From the UHGV virus genome UHGV-0366580: a DNA stretch of 38,660 nt. The stretch is one strand, 5' to 3'. Shown here piece after piece: positions 4,004 through 13,989 of this stretch. The position numbers were made by a program, and so were the translations under genes. Positions within the stretch are counted from its first letter, which is position 1. The number at the start of each line of letters is the position of its first letter. The notes under the pieces were generated by a model that made no database searches, was not told where the DNA came from, and worked only from the letters and a program-made list of their open reading frames with translations. This stretch comes from a virus.

Positions 4004-4078
4004 GGTGAAAAAAATCTCATTGCATGGGCGTGGTCGAGTGGTCTTATTGAGTTTGGTTACGTCCTGCCGGAAGGTGCA

Positions 4079-4285
4079 TTGCCGATAGTTGCCGGAAAGC
4101 CTGCCACGGTACGGCATGTGATTGAGGTTATGGCGCGTCATGGACGTGATGAACAGGAGCAGTTACTGGTTCCGGGGATACCGGAAGCGGTGACGGAGGA
4201 AGAAGCCTTTAATGCCATGATTCGGTTCTGCCGTGAGGTTAGACGCCGGGTCAGTTATCCAAACAGAACGAGGACCAGAGGATGA
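4079..4285 (+). CDS. Hypothetical protein (start uncertain: TTG 4079 or ATG 4127)
   Basis: ORF track calls a TTG start; internal ATG at 4127 has a GAGG 3 nt upstream. Confidence 0.3.
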   Translation: MPIVAGKPATVRHVIEVMARHGRDEQEQLLVPGIPEAVTEEEAFNAMIRFCREVRRRVSYPNRTRTRG

Positions 4286-4863: not shown

Positions 4864-5394
4864 ATGGCTAAACGCGTTACAAAATTAAAGGCCGCAGCCG
4901 AGGCGGCACCGCAGACCCGGGAAGAAGTCAGCCGTGATATCCGCACCCTGGGAGATATTCAGCGAGAGGCGCTGCGCCTGGAAACGGCGATGAATGACGA
5001 AGTGGCAGAAATCACCGCCCGTTATACGCCGCAGATTGAAAATCTTAAAAAGCAAATCAAAGTGCTTTTTAAAGGGATTCAGGACTGGTGCAAAACCAAC
5101 CGTGATGAGCTGACGAACGGCGGCAAAACCAAAACAGCCAATCTGACCACCGGAACGGTGTCATGGCGGCTGGGAACGCCATCATGCAGCGTCAGCCGTG
5201 ATGTGGAAGGTGTGATTGACACGCTGCGCCGTATGGGGCTTGAGCGATTCATCCGCACGAAAGAGGAAGTGAACAAGGAAGCCGTCCTGGCGGAGCCGGA
5301 TGCGGTGAAAGGCATTGCCGGTATAAAGGTGAATAAAGGCGCTGAAAGTTTTTATGTCGAGCCTTTTGAACAGGATGCCGGACTGAATAAATAA
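4864..5394 (+). CDS. gam: Gam-like host-nuclease inhibitor (DNA end-binding)
   Basis: 176 aa; resembles Mu Gam as recalled from memory, in the expected position. Confidence 0.8.
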   Translation: MAKRVTKLKAAAEAAPQTREEVSRDIRTLGDIQREALRLETAMNDEVAEITARYTPQIENLKKQIKVLFKGIQDWCKTNRDELTNGGKTKTANLTTGTVSWRLGTPSCSVSRDVEGVIDTLRRMGLERFIRTKEEVNKEAVLAEPDAVKGIAGIKVNKGAESFYVEPFEQDAGLNK

Positions 5395-5491: not shown

Positions 5492-6034
5492 ATGGCATAT
5501 TTTTATTTCAAATTAGACCGTGTGCAGACAAATAAATATTTCACCAAATATCAACAGGCTGTTTTACCGCTACGCAACAGTATTCTTCGGACATTACTGA
5601 AAAATACAGGCGCTGCCGGATTGCGCTTAAAGCCGTTCGCCATGGACAGAATCAGTGAGTTTTATTTTGCCGGTGCTCTGCCTGCGGGCTGGCGTAAGCG
5701 CGATGATGTGGCTTTTATCGGTGGCGGACAGTGCTTTATAGCCAGACCTGATGAGTCATGCCCTGAAGGACCGGCGATTGCCGCAATGATTGAAGCCGCT
5801 GAACGCGAGTTAAGAAAGCGTCCTGATTTCCTTGTCTGGCTCTGTGAAAAGCTGGGGGTAATGAGAATCCCCTCCATGTTTAACACGGACTCCTGGTGGA
5901 CCCCTTCGTTCTCCCGTGATGCCCTGTGCGTGGTGTTTAAAGTGGGCGCTTATGGCAGGGAAATAAACGGATGTATTCCTGAAGAATGCCAGGAAATTAA
6001 ACATTCTGAATATGTGGCGCTGACGGAGGAATAA
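5492..6034 (+). CDS. Hypothetical protein (accessory, semi-essential region)
   Basis: 180-aa ORF with AAGGAA RBS 8 nt upstream; no recognisable domain. Confidence 0.45.
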   Translation: MAYFYFKLDRVQTNKYFTKYQQAVLPLRNSILRTLLKNTGAAGLRLKPFAMDRISEFYFAGALPAGWRKRDDVAFIGGGQCFIARPDESCPEGPAIAAMIEAAERELRKRPDFLVWLCEKLGVMRIPSMFNTDSWWTPSFSRDALCVVFKVGAYGREINGCIPEECQEIKHSEYVALTEE

Positions 6035-6037
6035 TTC

Positions 6038-6571
6038 ATGATTGATGCAAAAGTGCTTGAAGGGGTTAAAAACTGGCTGAGTATTTACGGGCGTCTGACC
6101 TGCGGCGTACTGGCTGAAAAAATGAATATGCCGCCATCCTCCATGGTTTATTTTCTGCGTGATGCGGTTGATGCCGGGGTGCTGACGGAATGTAACGGTT
6201 TTTATGATATTCCGCGTCCCCGCCCGGTGCAGCCGATTCGTCGCAAATGCAGACAGGAATCTGCGGCTGATGATGTTCAGTGGTGCAGCTTCAGAAAATC
6301 CCTGCCATGGATTGAGGGGCATGATATTCCGTCGATGGCGTGGGAATTTGCTCAGGGCGTTCTGACCTGTGAAACCGTTTATGTGGTGGCTGAAGTTGAT
6401 GAGCAGGCCATGAAAGAAGGCGTGCCCCAGTTTGTGATGGCGTATATCGACATTCGCCTGGGTGTCATCATCTGCGGTTTAAGCGGCTGGAATATCACCG
6501 CGCGTGTTCTGCGCTACCTGATTGTTGACCGGACAGCAGCGCCTGCCGGGATATCTGCGGAGGTGGCGTAA
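6038..6571 (+). CDS. Hypothetical protein, possible N-terminal winged-helix
   Basis: 177-aa ORF, tightly packed after the upstream gene; function unknown. Confidence 0.45.
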   Translation: MIDAKVLEGVKNWLSIYGRLTCGVLAEKMNMPPSSMVYFLRDAVDAGVLTECNGFYDIPRPRPVQPIRRKCRQESAADDVQWCSFRKSLPWIEGHDIPSMAWEFAQGVLTCETVYVVAEVDEQAMKEGVPQFVMAYIDIRLGVIICGLSGWNITARVLRYLIVDRTAAPAGISAEVA

Positions 6572-7086
6572 TGTTCTTTAAAACATCAAACCCTTCCGCG
6601 CTGGCTGCGTGGCAAAAATACCAGCAGGACTGCCAGACGGTAAAAGATGAGGCGAAACGCCTTGAGGCCGTGCTGAATGTTGCGTGCCGGTCGGTATTTG
6701 AATTCAGTATCAGTGGTTTTTGTTTTAAGGGACTGCGTTTTACGGAGGACAAATATCCTTTTCATCGCGACTTATGGCGAAAACCGACTGCGTCGAATGG
6801 CTGGAGCTGCACACCGCGCACATCACGTATCCCTAAAACCCTGCGTGTTGCCTCTGATGAACTGAACAGTCTGTGGCGTGAATATTCGCCCGTCACGTAT
6901 GCCAGAACCGATGCGCTGTTGTTCTGGTTGGGTATTGATTTCTCGGCAATCCTGTTTGGCCCTGTGAAGTGGTTCTGCGTTGACGATGTGATTTACCTTC
7001 AGTGCGGCGTAAAACCCGCAAAACAGAAAATGACCGAAATACTGTCTGATGAGTTTTATGCTGCTGAAAAGCGAGTCAGGGGGTGA
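6571..7086 (+). CDS. Hypothetical protein
   Basis: 171-aa ORF; start overlaps upstream stop (TAATG). Confidence 0.45.
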   Translation: MFFKTSNPSALAAWQKYQQDCQTVKDEAKRLEAVLNVACRSVFEFSISGFCFKGLRFTEDKYPFHRDLWRKPTASNGWSCTPRTSRIPKTLRVASDELNSLWREYSPVTYARTDALLFWLGIDFSAILFGPVKWFCVDDVIYLQCGVKPAKQKMTEILSDEFYAAEKRVRG

Positions 7087-7089
7087 TGT

Positions 7090-7641
7090 ATGATGATTTT
7101 ACAACACATGGGGCGAAAAGGTCGTACACCCGCTCATGTCCGCGCGTGGACACCTGAAGAAGATGCGCTACTGATTGCGCTTTATTCATCCACCCCGGTT
7201 AAGGATATTGCTGCCAGAATAAAAAGAACTGTCTGGGCTGTATATAACCGGACTGGTGTATTGCGCAGTTCATACCCGGAGTTACTGAAATATAAACACC
7301 CAAGATTTACACCTGATGAAGATAAGTTTATTCGAAAAAATGCCAGAACAATGACCTGCCAGCAAATGGGAGAATATCTCGGACGTAATAAAGATTCTGT
7401 CAGATGTCGGGCAGGAATGATTGGTGCTGGATTAACAAAGTGCGGAGAGTTACGCCCCGGCACGCGCATATCTGATGATGATGTACGTCTTATACGTGCG
7501 CTGCGTGATTCCGATTACCCACGCCGTCTGTCATTCCGGGAAATTGGCGAAAAGTTTGGAATATCTGAACATTCTGCTCACGCAGTTTATTACCGTCGCC
7601 GGACTGCCGAGGACGCTGTATTACGGGAGTTAACGCCATGA
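7090..7641 (+). CDS. Hypothetical DNA-binding protein with three tandem HTH-like repeats
   Basis: 183 aa; three ~45-aa repeats beginning WTPEEDALLIAL, FTPDEDKFIRKN and ISDDDVRLIRAL. Confidence 0.5.
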   Translation: MMILQHMGRKGRTPAHVRAWTPEEDALLIALYSSTPVKDIAARIKRTVWAVYNRTGVLRSSYPELLKYKHPRFTPDEDKFIRKNARTMTCQQMGEYLGRNKDSVRCRAGMIGAGLTKCGELRPGTRISDDDVRLIRALRDSDYPRRLSFREIGEKFGISEHSAHAVYYRRRTAEDAVLRELTP

Positions 7642-7970
7642 TAACGACCTTATTTGTTGAATCAGATGAACCTCTTGTGTGTGCCGCCGGAATGCCGCTC
7701 TGTGGCGGAACGCTGACCGGCGTTTATTTCGGGGATTTGCGCGGTTATCCCTGGCATTCACTGGATGACGCATTTCCGCCTGATATGGAGGCTGTCGTGC
7801 TGATTGTTCAGTATGGTGACCAACAGGAACTGCGCATCGGCCATATGGGGTATGAAGGCTTTTTTATTGATGAAGAAACCGGAGCCTGCCTTGAAGATGA
7901 GGACGGACAGGTGACGCACTGGTGCCATCTTTCGGCCTTGCCGGAATTACAGGGGATGCATAATGGATGA
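7638..7970 (+). CDS. Hypothetical protein
   Basis: 110-aa ORF; start overlaps upstream stop. Confidence 0.4.
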   Translation: MITTLFVESDEPLVCAAGMPLCGGTLTGVYFGDLRGYPWHSLDDAFPPDMEAVVLIVQYGDQQELRIGHMGYEGFFIDEETGACLEDEDGQVTHWCHLSALPELQGMHNG

Positions 7971-8106
7971 GCAAATTGTTGAATGTCCCACCTGTGGAAA
8001 TGAGGACCCGGAGTATCTGAAAGAGTGCCCACATTGTGGTGAGATAAAATGTAACCACTGCGATATGGGCGACGACACTGCATGTATAAATTGTGAGGAT
8101 GAATAA
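7963..8106 (+). CDS. Small zinc-ribbon protein, 47 aa (four CxxC motifs); absent from ORF track
   Basis: ATG 7963 (overlapping upstream stop as ATGGATGA) to TAA 8104-8106: MDEQIVECPTCGNEDPEYLKECPHCGEIKCNHCDMGDDTACINCEDE. Confidence 0.5.
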   Translation: MDEQIVECPTCGNEDPEYLKECPHCGEIKCNHCDMGDDTACINCEDE

Positions 8107-8107
8107 T

Positions 8108-8395
8108 ATGGAAAAAGAAATCAAATTTGCGCCTAAATCTATCGACGAAGAACTGGCTAAAATCGGCATGCTTGAACGTATGCGGGACATTATCGAATAT
8201 GCGATAAAAGAAAATCTTGCAGCCAGAGAAGCCCTTTTGATAATGGAGCGGGAGATTAACCTGATTAAGGATGCTGTATCTCTGGATAATAAAATAGCCC
8301 GCGAGGAATACGTTCGCCGTAGGCTCGGTGTTGATGGTTCAGCAATTCTTACATCTGAACATTATGCAAAAATTTTTAATCTTTTTCAGCGGTAA
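8108..8395 (+). CDS. Hypothetical protein
   Basis: ATG at 8108 (MEKEIKF...) right after the zinc-ribbon stop; the ORF-track start at 8093 overlaps it. Confidence 0.4.
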   Translation: MEKEIKFAPKSIDEELAKIGMLERMRDIIEYAIKENLAAREALLIMEREINLIKDAVSLDNKIAREEYVRRRLGVDGSAILTSEHYAKIFNLFQR

Positions 8396-8643: not shown

Positions 8644-8672
8644 GGCGGTGCGGTAACACCGCCCATTTTTTA
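8644..8672 (+). terminator. Candidate intrinsic terminator (GGCGGTG/CACCGCC stem, then T6)
   Basis: 7-bp perfect stem 8644-8650/8657-8663, 6-nt loop, followed by CATTTTTTAT. Confidence 0.5.
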
Positions 8673-8685
8673 TGGAGCCACGATA

Positions 8686-9198
8686 ATGAATCGCGCTTCC
8701 CTGATTACCTTAATACATGTCGCAAAACGCGATCTACAGCTTGACCATGATACCTATACATCCGCGCTGCTGGCAGCCACCGGCAAATCCAGTTGCCGTG
8801 ATATGTCACCCGGTGAGTTATCCCGCGTGCTGGATGTTTTCAAAAAACGCGGTTTTAAAGTGCGTCAGAAGCCGGTTAACCGGGCCTTAAAACCGGGTAC
8901 GGTGACCGCCAAAATTCGCGCCATCTGGAAAGTGATGCACCGGCAGGGATTTATCTCTGATGGCGGGGAAACGGCCCTTAACCGCTGGGTGAAATCGCAG
9001 ACGGCCGCGCAGAACGACGGCGAAGGTGTGGCTAACTGGCAGTGGCTGGAGCAACAACCCGCGCTGGCCTCTGATGTGCTGGAGCGTCTCAAACGCTGGC
9101 ACCGCCGCAAAATGCTGGCAGCCCTGGATATGTCGGAACGTGCAGTGATGAGTTATGAGCGTGTTTGCAGGCTGTATGAAAAATCATTCCCCCGTTAA
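8686..9198 (+). CDS. gemA: GemA-like protein (Mu gp16 family)
   Basis: 170 aa; N-terminal LITLIHVAKRDLQLDHDTY pattern and position upstream of the Mor/C gene. Confidence 0.7.
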   Translation: MNRASLITLIHVAKRDLQLDHDTYTSALLAATGKSSCRDMSPGELSRVLDVFKKRGFKVRQKPVNRALKPGTVTAKIRAIWKVMHRQGFISDGGETALNRWVKSQTAAQNDGEGVANWQWLEQQPALASDVLERLKRWHRRKMLAALDMSERAVMSYERVCRLYEKSFPR

Positions 9199-9268: not shown

Positions 9269-9691
9269 ATGGCTGAAACACAGATGAGCATGTTTGGTGA
9301 CAGCGAACAGCTGCACGCGCTGATTGACCGTCTGGATGATATTCCTGATGATGAGCTGAAAAAGAACTGGCCCGGCACGCTGCGGGACCTGGTTGATGTG
9401 ATCAGTGCTGAACTGCACCGTCAGGGGATTGAACCTGCTCAGGCGGGAATGCTTGCCCGTAAGGTTGCAGCCGCACAGGCCGGGTACATGGGCGGGCGTG
9501 GTTATTATCTCCCGGTCGGTGAATCCCTTTTCACCGAACTGCGCAATAATGAAATTTTTTCCCGCTGGAGCCAGGGCGAAAAAATTGAAACCCTGCGCCG
9601 CCATTACCGGATGTCAGAAACCCAGATTTACACCGTCATACGCGAACAGCGCCGTCTGCATCTGGCAAGAACGCAACCGCCACTTTTCTGA
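9269..9691 (+). CDS. Mor/C-family transcription activator (middle or late regulator)
   Basis: 140 aa; C-terminal region resembles the Mor/C family as recalled from memory; directly precedes the lysis and structural genes. Confidence 0.7.
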   Translation: MAETQMSMFGDSEQLHALIDRLDDIPDDELKKNWPGTLRDLVDVISAELHRQGIEPAQAGMLARKVAAAQAGYMGGRGYYLPVGESLFTELRNNEIFSRWSQGEKIETLRRHYRMSETQIYTVIREQRRLHLARTQPPLF

Positions 9692-12325: not shown

Positions 12326-13989
12326 TGAATAACGCCGAAGAACTCTCCCCCTTACTGACGAATACCGTCTCCACCCGCAAAATTGATCTGGCCGGTGAAA
12401 AAGCCCTGCTGGGCGTGGATGTGCCGGACAGCCTTGATTTGCCCGGTGATATGCCGGTATTTCTGGATTATCAGGCCCGCTGGTTTGAGGATGAAAGCGA
12501 GGTCTGCATCGCGGAAAAATCCCGCCGTACCGGGCTTACCTGGGCGGAAGCCGGGCGTAACGTCATTACCGCTGCAAAACCGAAGCGGCGCGGTGGCCGC
12601 AATGTGTTTTATGTGGGGTCAAAGCAGGAGATGGCGCTGGAATATATTTCTGCCTGCGCCCTGTTCTCCCGTGCCTTTAACCAGCTGGCAGATGCTGATG
12701 TGTATGAGCAGACCTTCTGGGATCGGGATAAAAAAGAAGAAATTCTGACCTACATGATCCGCTTTCCGAACAGTGGATTCAAAATTCAGGCACTGTCTTC
12801 CCGTCCGTCAAACCTGCGCGGCCTTCAGGGGGATGTGGTGATTGATGAAGCCGCGTTCCACGAGTCACTGGATGAGCTTCTCAAGGCGGCAATGGCGCTT
12901 ACCATGTGGGGCGCGCGCGTGCGTATTATCTCCACGCATAACGGCGTCGATAATCTGTTTAATCAGTACATTCAGGAAGCCCGCGAGGGACGCAAGGATT
13001 ACAGCGTCCACCGCATAACCCTGGATGATGCCATTGCGGACGGGCTGTACCGTCGTATCTGTTATGTCACCGGCCGCGAATGGTCACCGGAAAGCGAGCA
13101 GAAGTGGCGTGATGATCTCTACAAAAACGCCCCGACCCGTGAGGATGCCGACGAGGAATACGGCTGTATCCCGAAAAAATCCGGCGGTGCCTATATTCCT
13201 CACGCGCTTATTGAAATGGCGATGATCCGCGACATCCCGATTCTGACGTTTGAAGCCCCGGACGACTTCATCAGCCGTGCTGCATGGCTGCGTGAATCGG
13301 AGGTTTTAACCTGGTGTGAAGAACATTTAAAACCGCTTTTAGAGAAATTAAATCCCCGTTCCCGCTTCAGCTTCGGGGAAGACTTTGCCCGCACCGGTGA
13401 CCTGTCCTGCTTTGTGCTGCTGGAAATCACCGAATCCCTGGCAAAACGCGAGGTGTTTCGCGTGGAGCTGCGTAACCTGCCGTATGCCCAGCAGGAGCAG
13501 GTGATGATGTACATCCTGACCCGCGTTCCGGCACTGACTGGCGCGGCGTTCGATGCCACCGGTAACGGCGGCTATCTGGCCGAAGCCGCGCTGCTGGCCT
13601 TTGGTCCGGACATCATCGACTGCGTGATGTTATCGCCGAAGTGGTACGGCGAGTGGATGCCAAAACTGAAGGCCGAGTTTGAAGATCAGAATATCCTCGT
13701 CGCCCGTCATCAGACCACGCTTGATGATTTGCGCCATGTGAAGGTGGTGAACGGTATCCCGCAAATCGACAAGGGGCGTACGAAGGACCAGAACGCAACG
13801 GCTGTGAACGCCCGCCGCCATGGTGATTTTGCCGTGGCGCTCTGTATGGCAAACCGGGCGTCATACATGGAGGGCTTCATCCTGGATGAATCAGCCTGTC
13901 AGGCGCTGCCGGAGCGGTCGCGGGCCATGGAGGGCGGTTATCGTGATGACGATGAGGCATATCATAAATTTGATCGGGGGTGCTGGTAG
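12325..13989 (+). CDS. Terminase large subunit (Mu gp28-like)
   Basis: 554 aa; position and size; Walker-B-like VVIDEAAF. Confidence 0.8.
   Translation: MNNAEELSPLLTNTVSTRKIDLAGEKALLGVDVPDSLDLPGDMPVFLDYQARWFEDESEVCIAEKSRRTGLTWAEAGRNVITAAKPKRRGGRNVFYVGSKQEMALEYISACALFSRAFNQLADADVYEQTFWDRDKKEEILTYMIRFPNSGFKIQALSSRPSNLRGLQGDVVIDEAAFHESLDELLKAAMALTMWGARVRIISTHNGVDNLFNQYIQEAREGRKDYSVHRITLDDAIADGLYRRICYVTGREWSPESEQKWRDDLYKNAPTREDADEEYGCIPKKSGGAYIPHALIEMAMIRDIPILTFEAPDDFISRAAWLRESEVLTWCEEHLKPLLEKLNPRSRFSFGEDFARTGDLSCFVLLEITESLAKREVFRVELRNLPYAQQEQVMMYILTRVPALTGAAFDATGNGGYLAEAALLAFGPDIIDCVMLSPKWYGEWMPKLKAEFEDQNILVARHQTTLDDLRHVKVVNGIPQIDKGRTKDQNATAVNARRHGDFAVALCMANRASYMEGFILDESACQALPERSRAMEGGYRDDDEAYHKFDRGCW

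Follow-up and report, generated by a model that had tools for sequence, protein, structure and literature searches.

The window analysed here is the whole of UHGV virus genome UHGV-0366580, a stretch of 38,660 nucleotides. It is a Mu-like prophage with 100% identity to the chromosome of E. coli DETEC-S792. After gam it carries a block of four consecutive genes, which we call ORF1 to ORF4 (Table 1), and this block is present in 233 of 5426 complete E. coli genomes (~4%). The first-pass annotation had reported four ORFs of 170-183 amino acids at positions 5492-7641; all of them are there, on the plus strand, each with an ATG start codon and a Shine-Dalgarno-like sequence. They are closely packed: ORF1 and ORF2 are separated by a 3-nucleotide gap, ORF2 and ORF3 overlap by one nucleotide, ORF3 and ORF4 are again separated by three nucleotides, and ORF4 overlaps the next gene by four. 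RefSeq annotates the same four CDSs in its record of the E. coli chromosome that matches at 100%. Measured against a reference set of diverged intact copies, the median dN/dS is 0.34 for ORF1, 0.14 for ORF2, 0.18 for ORF3 and 0.28 for ORF4 (0.12 for gam). All four ORFs are thus under purifying selection, and these values rule out chance ORFs in favour of real genes. The minus-strand ORF that overlaps ORF1 and ORF2 has no RefSeq annotation and was taken as a shadow ORF.

Table 1. The four-gene block and its surroundings, in positions of the window
Feature	Position	Strand	Properties
gam	4864-5394	+	host-nuclease inhibitor, directly upstream of the block; Pfam Phage_Mu_Gam 6.9e-42; 57% identity to Mu Gam
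ORF1	5492-6034	+	180 aa; pI 8.2
Minus-strand ORF	5810-6322	-	170 aa
ORF2	6038-6571	+	177 aa; pI 5.2
ORF3	6571-7086	+	171 aa; pI 9.0
ORF4	7090-7641	+	183 aa; pI 10.0
Acidic 110-aa gene	7638-7970	+	pI 4.05; 19 D+E vs 2 K+R; phrog_6925; dN/dS 0.16
gp13 ortholog	7963-8106	+	small, Cys-rich; 88% identity over 41 aa to Mu gp13, E 2e-27
gp14 ortholog	8108-8395	+	49% identity to Mu gp14, E 2.5e-29
Terminator-like hairpin	8644-8663		5' of gemA
gemA	8686-9198	+	Pfam GemA 1.8e-28
Mor/C-family gene	9269-9691		downstream of gemA

The block is flanked by genes for transposase A and B, a kil-like gene, gam, gemA and a Mor-family gene, and these early genes bear out its placement in the semi-essential early region of a Mu-type phage. 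The first-pass annotation had located it between gam and the late genes: the upstream boundary is correct, but what comes next is a further series of early genes, including gemA and the Mor/C-family gene, and the late genes are not adjacent. The acidic gene that follows ORF4 is translationally coupled to it and is missing from Mu. The small gp13 ortholog has no CDS in the RefSeq record. On the plus strand within the block, our scan found neither promoter-like nor terminator-like sites, and the hairpin upstream of gemA is the first strong terminator-like element after it. Rfam and repeat scans of the block revealed nothing hidden. It is very probable that the block forms the mid-part of the Pe-driven, semi-essential early operon in a Mu-like prophage of E. 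coli, and that its four ORFs are co-transcribed, translationally coupled accessory genes drawn from catalogued phage families. Compared with Mu, there are two insertions, one consisting of ORF1 and the other of ORF4 together with the acidic gene.

No motif had been recognised in these genes at first reading. This did not hold up: all four match PHROG families (E 6e-52 to 8e-105), ORF2 contains the Pfam domain Gp11_C and ORF4 gives Myb/SANT and helix-turn-helix signals. By homology, ORF2 and Mu gp11 (formerly E10/E11/E12; Gp11_C, PF25754; phrog_1949) are orthologs. The two proteins are 67% identical over the full length of 177 amino acids (blastp, E 2.7e-80), the match to phrog_1949 reaches 8e-105, and the complete Gp11_C profile (1-78) aligns with residues 90-167 at 136.3 bits (cut-off 27; 4.6e-40). 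Mu gp11 has nearly the same size (176 amino acids), shares the C-terminal domain and likewise has its place between gam and gp12; in Mu, however, it comes directly after gam, whereas a DUF5420-type gene is placed between the two in the prophage. The N-terminal half of ORF2 has sub-threshold matches to winged-helix families only (HTH_20, the best, at 0.012; PCI, HTH_CodY and WH4_Lhr), and a winged helix is possible there. When the PDB was searched by sequence, neither single sequences nor family profiles yielded a meaningful match; the top one, between gp11 and MIF, covers 23-35 residues at E 0.3 and was dismissed as due to chance.

ORF3 is, on the same kind of evidence, the ortholog of Mu gp12 (formerly E13; Phage_Mu_Gp12, PF26885; phrog_2314), with 54% identity over 169 amino acids, that is, full length (blastp, E 3.3e-67), and a match to phrog_2314 at 1.4e-83. 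The PF26885 domain is precomputed on the representatives of its 95%-identical cluster. The start of the gene overlaps the gp11 stop codon in Mu as it does in the prophage. The two phages differ in what follows: gp13 comes directly after gp12 in Mu, while ORF4 and the acidic gene come after ORF3 here. SfMu carries a frameshifted gp12, an observation that corrects the literature.

ORF1 has no counterpart in Mu or D108. Its sequence marks it as a divergent DUF5420-type protein (phrog_2260, 2.4e-73), and a full-length homolog, SfMu ORF11 (also SfMu gp11; 'DUF5420 family protein' in RefSeq), fills the corresponding slot, after gam and before gp11, and is 41% identical from end to end (E 2e-45). This slot is used in the same way in Yersinia Mu-like phages. 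With the Pfam DUF5420 model (PF17457) ORF1 scores 12 bits (E 0.18), short of the gathering cut-off of 26, and neither SfMu ORF11 nor the YpM_3 homolog matches this model, while canonical members of the family score 40-44 bits. As ORF1 and SfMu ORF11 both fall below the Pfam cut-off, we regard them as a divergent subfamily. A phmmer search of a library of 1.84 billion proteins connects the two subfamilies, aligning residues 1-180 of ORF1 with residues 1-188 of P0185, a PF17457-positive protein (E 1.9e-4). Across both subfamilies 23 columns are invariant; they include the motifs YFKL at the N terminus, PD, and IKHSE..A..EE at the C terminus, which are present in ORF1 and in the Pfam-positive members alike. 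Salmonella prophages carry two DUF5420-type genes in tandem, one of each subfamily.

ORF4 consists of three Myb/SANT-like helix-turn-helix repeats, at about residues 15-62, 67-116 and 121-172. The Pfam Myb_DNA-binding match (PF00249) is marginal, at 25.2 bits where 24.4 are required; this score is the sum of the repeats, none of which passes alone. A homolog reaches 25.5 bits, and in it a single stretch clears the cut-off. ORF4 has in addition an HTH_AsnC-type match (7e-4), and RefSeq names it a SANT/Myb-like DNA-binding domain-containing protein. The first repeat follows the Myb/SANT pattern W-T-P-E-E-D...I-A...R-T, and the protein is basic; in repeats 2 and 3, however, the tryptophans are replaced, and repeat 3 is more like the helix-turn-helix of AsnC or of sigma-70 region 4. 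In mycobacteriophages the repeat module is found fused to HNH endonucleases or methylases. The basic pI, the three repeats and these fusions suggest that ORF4 is a DNA-binding protein.

The closest relation of ORF4 in Mu is gp9 (formerly E8). Both match PHROG 323, a 'transcriptional regulator, D5-like' family: ORF4 at 5.8e-52 (positions 82-256 of the 319 in the phrog_323 profile) and gp9 at 5.2e-29 (positions 142-244). The second and third repeats of ORF4 (residues 66-168) pair with the entire gp9 at 26% identity (pairwise E 3e-7). Gp9 is nevertheless much shorter (99 amino acids against 183, ORF4 having the extra N-terminal repeat), and its gene lies upstream of gam in Mu, whereas ORF4 is downstream of gp12. 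From these similarities, ORF4 is a member of the gp9 family, located here in place of the gp9 gene upstream of gam.

How variable is this part of the operon? We surveyed 49 non-redundant gam-to-gemA intervals from IMG/VR loci retrieved via gp11, which is therefore present in every interval by construction. A DUF5420-type gene and gp12 occur together in 22 intervals, gp12 alone in 11, the DUF5420-type gene alone in six, and neither in ten. An ORF4-type gene is present in 22 of the 49, never together with an upstream gp9; this mutual exclusion may reflect two phage lineages instead of functional replacement. The region had been expected to vary between Mu-like phages, and these counts agree.

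Since the four genes fall into catalogued families, and two of them are direct counterparts of Mu gp11 and gp12, the block is an ordinary one. The first-pass annotation had seen in it the likeliest place for uncharacterised phage-host interaction genes, a view against which homology to conserved Mu early proteins would count. Such homology is largely what we found, confidently for ORF2 and ORF3 and at the family level for ORF4, while the homolog of ORF1 is the one in SfMu. As to function, the same annotation was right: no database entry or experiment assigns one to any of the four families, and our literature searches found no paper on DUF5420 or on the function of gp11 or gp12.

Structure prediction, proposed with the first-pass annotation as a check, gave a confident AlphaFold2 model for ORF1 (pLDDT 88.4, pTM 0.80) and a model of moderate confidence for ORF3 (pLDDT 72.4, with two segments below 50). 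No fold could be assigned to the ORF1 model from the PDB: Foldseek returned no match at E <=0.001, the best having an E-value of 0.18 and a TM-score of ~0.2. In both models the secondary-structure elements follow one another in an identical order, at near-identical positions. In a Foldseek search of BFVD, five of the six best matches of ORF3 (whose model has a pLDDT of 72) were also listed for ORF1; the best ORF3 matches A0A7G8Z7V2, A0A6G5YHC7 and A0A8S5PYN2 have ORF1 probabilities of 0.94, 0.98 and 1.00. This suggests, indirectly, that the DUF5420-type protein ORF1 and the gp12 protein ORF3 share one alpha/beta fold that has no solved representative, and from the models we infer that the two would be distant paralogs.

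Sequence comparison by itself does not reach this far. A sequence-only hhalign alignment pairs residues 4-178 of ORF1 with residues 1-166 of ORF3, and thereby the same structural elements, yet it is not significant. Between the family profiles of ORF1 and ORF3, built from shallow and from enlarged alignments, hhalign gave a probability of 0.12-0.18% and E-values of 0.34-0.47, again not significant. We therefore rejected the two genes as sequence-detectable paralogs and retain their proposed relationship at the level of structure. The authors of the SfMu study came independently to a similar guess, namely divergent homology between SfMu ORF11 and Mu orf12 (PMC4406740).

A broader version of this proposal would have DUF5420 and gp12 form a single phage-only superfamily that duplicates and diversifies around gp11, with zero to three copies per Mu-type phage and a host-directed activity (counter-defence or arm/cim), the invariant C-terminal IKHSE..A..EE tail of the DUF5420 branch serving as a docking or catalytic element. 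It would extend to unrelated phages, namely Pseudomonas PaBG, Gordonia GMA2 and mycobacteriophage ShiVal. We consider this extended version rather improbable.

What could these genes do? The explanation that we prefer joins the identities given above to a mechanism, and as a whole we consider it somewhat more likely than not. In its mechanistic part, ORF1 to ORF4 would be dispensable and would act early, modulating the DNA transactions of the phage or of its host. DNA would be bound by ORF4 and perhaps by ORF2 through its N-terminal half, and the role of the set would resemble that of arm and cim; an essential role in replication or morphogenesis is not favoured. The mechanistic part of this explanation, comprising the shared fold, the DNA binding and the action as accessory early modulators, is tentative and may well be wrong. 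The arm and cim functions of Mu were assigned genetically and are unmapped, and attributing either of them to these genes is a conjecture.

It is also conceivable, though on balance unlikely, that one or more of the four proteins, most plausibly ORF1 and ORF4, act in counter-defence or host takeover: in the early phase of infection they would bind a protein or a defence system of the host and neutralise it. The genes are small, expressed early and, by comparison, dispensable, as they are missing from Mu or from other relatives, and gene content differs between close relatives. By dN/dS, constraint is weakest on ORF1 and ORF4; the DUF5420-type genes, duplicated in tandem in the Salmonella prophages, form a phage-confined family of just eight representative clusters in 1.84 billion proteins, and the invariant IKHSE..A..EE tail of their products could serve for docking. 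The neighbourhood also fits, with gam, an inhibitor of RecBCD, on one side and the very acidic 110-residue protein on the other. However, none of our results connects the four with host takeover or anti-defence, and none of the proteins resembles an anti-defence protein that has been characterised: neither PADLOC (at E-values up to 0.1) nor NCBIfam returned a match for any of the four ORFs, and the ORF1 model matched no fold in the PDB. Across Mu, D108 and the prophage, gp11 and gp12 retain 54-67% identity under clear purifying selection, a pattern that is unlike an arms race, and ORF1 and ORF3 are basic proteins, not acidic DNA mimics.

The invariant residues of ORF1 raise another question: could it be an enzyme acting on nucleic acids, with ORF3 by extension? 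K7, R28, D87, K170, H171, S172 and E173 would then make up an active site, for instance one of a PD...ExK-like type. PD (86-87) and E-I-K (168-170) are indeed invariant in all aligned DUF5420-type sequences, and the weak, non-significant PDB matches of the model are all DNA-handling alpha/beta domains (MutS domain I, I-DmoI, the C-terminal domain of T4 MotA, the IS608 transposase). However, no PD-(D/E)xK nuclease is among the top Foldseek matches, even though the PDB holds many of them, so that the negative PDB search counts against a nuclease of this class. The canonical PD-(D/E)xK arrangement is a hairpin, whereas PD and ExK are separated by about 80 residues in ORF1, and gp12 lacks the PD and has EIL where DUF5420 has EIK. 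An enzymatic role is for us very unlikely. We find it highly improbable, too, that gp11 and an adjoining partner of the DUF5420/gp12 fold constitute an obligate two-component module. A DUF5420-type gene, a gp12 gene or both do adjoin gp11 through coupled junctions in Mu, SfMu, the Yersinia phages and the window, but the ten of 49 intervals that carry gp11 without either partner are, at about 1.1-1.8 kb, too short to harbour a divergent one. A requirement of gp11 for such an adjacent partner was rejected on this ground.

RefSeq already annotates the genes, Mu-like prophages of E. coli commonly carry them, and existing Pfam and PHROG families cover them; as it stands, the finding matters little. 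A useful outcome is a map of how this early operon differs from that of Mu, with its two insertions and with gp9 replaced by a three-repeat relative located elsewhere in the operon. If DUF5420 and Phage_Mu_Gp12 do have a common fold, the problem posed by two families of unknown function would be halved, and this fold would be a good target for structure determination. The four genes and their acidic 110-residue neighbour are obvious candidates for mapping arm and cim, or for counter-defence screens in Mu-type phages.

ORF1 to ORF4, the four genes that follow gam, belong to an E. coli Mu-like prophage: the block and its flanks are 100% identical to the DETEC-S792 chromosome, and a copy of the block occurs in 233 of 5426 complete E. 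coli genomes, mostly at 90-95% identity. The four ORFs lie where the first-pass annotation had placed them and have the sizes it gave; all are on the plus strand with ATG starts. RefSeq has the same four CDSs; it names ORF4 a 'SANT/Myb-like DNA-binding domain-containing protein' and calls ORF1-ORF3 hypothetical. These are real, selected genes, co-transcribed within one early operon. Each has a Shine-Dalgarno-like sequence, and the genes are separated by 3 nt (ORF1/ORF2, ORF3/ORF4) or overlap by 1 nt (ORF2/ORF3) and 4 nt (ORF4/next gene); a scan of the plus strand within the block turned up neither promoter-like nor terminator-like sites, and only downstream of it does a strong terminator-like hairpin appear. 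Median dN/dS, computed against diverged yet intact copies in other prophages, is 0.34, 0.14, 0.18 and 0.28 for ORF1 to ORF4, and 0.12 for gam. A 170-aa ATG ORF on the minus strand, overlapping ORF1 and ORF2 and not annotated in RefSeq, presumably just shadows the coding strand.

Coordinates of the block and neighbouring features in the window
Feature	Position	Strand	Remarks
Early gene upstream of gam	4019-4285	+	88 aa; phrog_1518 'host nuclease inhibitor', 3.6e-41; RefSeq: hypothetical
gam	4864-5394	+	upstream neighbour of ORF1
ORF1	5492-6034	+	180 aa, ATG start
Presumed shadow ORF	5810-6322	-
ORF2	6038-6571	+	177 aa, ATG start
ORF3	6571-7086	+	171 aa, ATG start
ORF4	7090-7641	+	183 aa, ATG start
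Acidic 110-aa gene	7638-7970	+	pI 4.05; D+E = 19 vs K+R = 2; translationally coupled to ORF4
gp13 ortholog	7963-8106	+	47 aa; 88% identity over 41 aa to Mu gp13
Terminator-like hairpin	8644-8663
Mor/C-family activator gene	9269-9691	+	40% identity to Mu C, 28% to Mor

ORF2 is the ortholog of Mu gp11 (67% identity over the full length, E 2.7e-80), with matches to the Pfam domain Gp11_C (4.6e-40) and to phrog_1949. Its N-terminal half has sub-threshold matches only, every one to winged-helix families, and the protein may bind DNA through such a domain. ORF3 is the ortholog of Mu gp12 (54% full-length identity, E 3.3e-67; phrog_2314), and its close homologs carry PF26885 (Phage_Mu_Gp12).

Neither Mu nor D108 has a counterpart of ORF1. 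Its homolog in SfMu is ORF11, a DUF5420 family protein in RefSeq: the two share 41% identity from end to end (E 2e-45), both fall into phrog_2260, and both genes lie between gam and gp11. ORF1 scores 12 bits against the Pfam DUF5420 profile (PF17457), under the 26-bit cut-off, and phmmer, run exhaustively against 1.84 billion representative proteins, linked it over its full length to a Pfam-positive member (E 1.9e-4); by this search the family is very small, with 8 representative clusters. An alignment of both DUF5420 subfamilies has 23 invariant positions, the invariant motifs being an N-terminal YFKL, an internal PD and an IKHSE..A..EE that closes the protein. That the invariant PD...EIK marks a nuclease is unlikely: no PD-(D/E)xK fold was found and the residues are not kept in gp12. 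Wherever checked, DUF5420-type genes lie in a Mu-type operon between gam (or DUF3164) and gp11. Two Salmonella prophages (L088 and L089, 5001-6136) carry a tandem pair upstream of gp11, one ORF1-like and Pfam-negative, the other Pfam-positive; in L088 a DUF3164 protein replaces Gam. In the Stx1a phage Stx1_JNE122137 (LC727895.1), where a Mu-like element is inserted within an Stx-converting phage, the protein in the ORF1 slot (12562-13131) is 24% identical to ORF1, while the remaining block is ~70-90% identical. Divergence or replacement is concentrated locally at this slot.

Are ORF1 and ORF3 themselves related? Searches of the PDB by sequence, with ORF1-ORF4 as single sequences and as family profiles, returned no matches. 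ORF1 gave a confident AlphaFold2 model (pLDDT 88.4, pTM 0.80); Foldseek found nothing significant for it in the PDB (best E 0.18, TM ~0.2), and in the viral library BFVD it matched uncharacterised phage proteins (identity 17-18%, TM 0.69-0.74). The ORF3 model is of moderate confidence (pLDDT 72.4, pTM 0.62); its secondary-structure elements follow the same order as those of ORF1, and their positions nearly coincide. The best BFVD matches of ORF3 recur in the ORF1 list: A0A7G8Z7V2 (E 4.5e-9 for ORF3, probability 0.94 for ORF1), A0A6G5YHC7 (E 6.9e-7 and probability 0.98), A0A8S5PYN2 (probability 1.00 for both), A0A6G5YGU2 (E 1.1e-2 and 0.49) and A0A0K0N751 (E 2.1e-2 and 0.36). Profile-profile comparison of the two families was not significant (E 0.34-0.47), yet with enlarged profiles the non-significant alignment runs end to end and pairs predicted elements. 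We put it at about two chances in three that DUF5420-type proteins and gp12 have a common fold, one with no solved structure, and are probably ancient paralogs. The SfMu authors had conjectured the same relatedness from gene position (PMC4406740).

ORF4 is a predicted DNA-binding protein, basic (pI 10.0) and built of three Myb/SANT-like helix-turn-helix repeats, with a marginal Pfam Myb_DNA-binding score (25.2 bits vs a 24.4 cut-off). It matches phrog_323 ('transcriptional regulator, D5-like', 5.8e-52), the family of Mu gp9, the whole of which aligns with ORF4 residues 66-168. Similar modules are found in a P2-like Citrobacter phage, and mycobacteriophages have them fused to HNH endonucleases or methylases.

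The presence of these genes varies among relatives. We fetched 81 loci via gp11, which is present in all of them by construction, and assigned their ORFs by family HMMs; counts rest on 49 non-redundant complete gam-to-gemA intervals. DUF5420-type and gp12 genes occur together in 22 of these, gp12 only in 11, a DUF5420-type gene only in 6 and neither in 10; these 10 stand-alone gp11 intervals rule out that gp11 requires an adjacent DUF5420/gp12 partner. An ORF4-type gene is found in 22 intervals and gp9 upstream of gam in 19, the two together in none. Compared with Mu, the window prophage therefore carries two insertions, one being ORF1 and the other ORF4 together with the acidic gene, and upstream of gam it has no gp8 or gp9. 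Mu orf12 was reported to have no SfMu homolog (PMC4406740). However, an unannotated 514-bp gap in SfMu (NC_027382, 3443-3971) holds a frameshift-split gp12 homolog ('MFFKTSNPAALLAWDQFMA...' then '...NFPGNERPFSPELWTVQR...'), so the published absence is an annotation artefact, a pseudogene or a sequencing error.

Upstream of the block lie Ner-like, transposase A, B, kil-like and small early genes, with gam last; ORF4 is followed in order by the acidic 110-aa gene, gp13 and gp14 orthologs, a minus-strand 79-aa gene, gemA, a Mor/C-family gene and a lysozyme gene. The 88-aa early gene, from its family match, may be a second nuclease-inhibitor-type gene beside gam. The gp13 ortholog, Cys-rich like the CxxC-rich, zinc-ribbon-like Mu protein, lacks annotation in the 100% identical RefSeq record. 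The Mor/C-family gene is the only one in the whole 38.6-kb window, with the lysozyme gene almost directly 3', whereas Mu and SfMu have two activators (Mor, C), suggesting that transcription in this prophage lineage follows a simpler cascade of two tiers.

The first-pass annotation recognised no motif and named this region the likeliest place for phage-host interaction genes. An anti-defence role for genes of the block fits, without being established by, the variable gene content between relatives, the tandem duplication of the DUF5420 type and the fact that ORF1 and ORF4 are less constrained; searches of ORF1-ORF4 against PADLOC and NCBIfam gave no matches. The product that looks most counter-defence-like in the whole region is that of the acidic 110-aa gene (phrog_6925, function unknown), which Mu lacks and which evolves under purifying selection (dN/dS 0.16). 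DNA-mimic anti-restriction proteins typically have a charge profile as acidic as this one.

That proposal finds partial support: the region is indeed variable, but by the yardstick that the first-pass annotation itself set, the block consists for the most part of ordinary, conserved early proteins of Mu, namely gp11, gp12, a relative of gp9 and a DUF5420 protein of the SfMu type. ORF2 and ORF3 are orthologs of conserved Mu proteins, the ORF1 and ORF4 families are present in other Mu-type phages, and all four families were previously catalogued and annotated. The four would act early in infection to modulate DNA transactions of the phage or the host, and would be dispensable. What is modestly new is the probable common fold of DUF5420 and gp12, the mutual exclusivity of gp9 and ORF4, and the corrected SfMu annotation.
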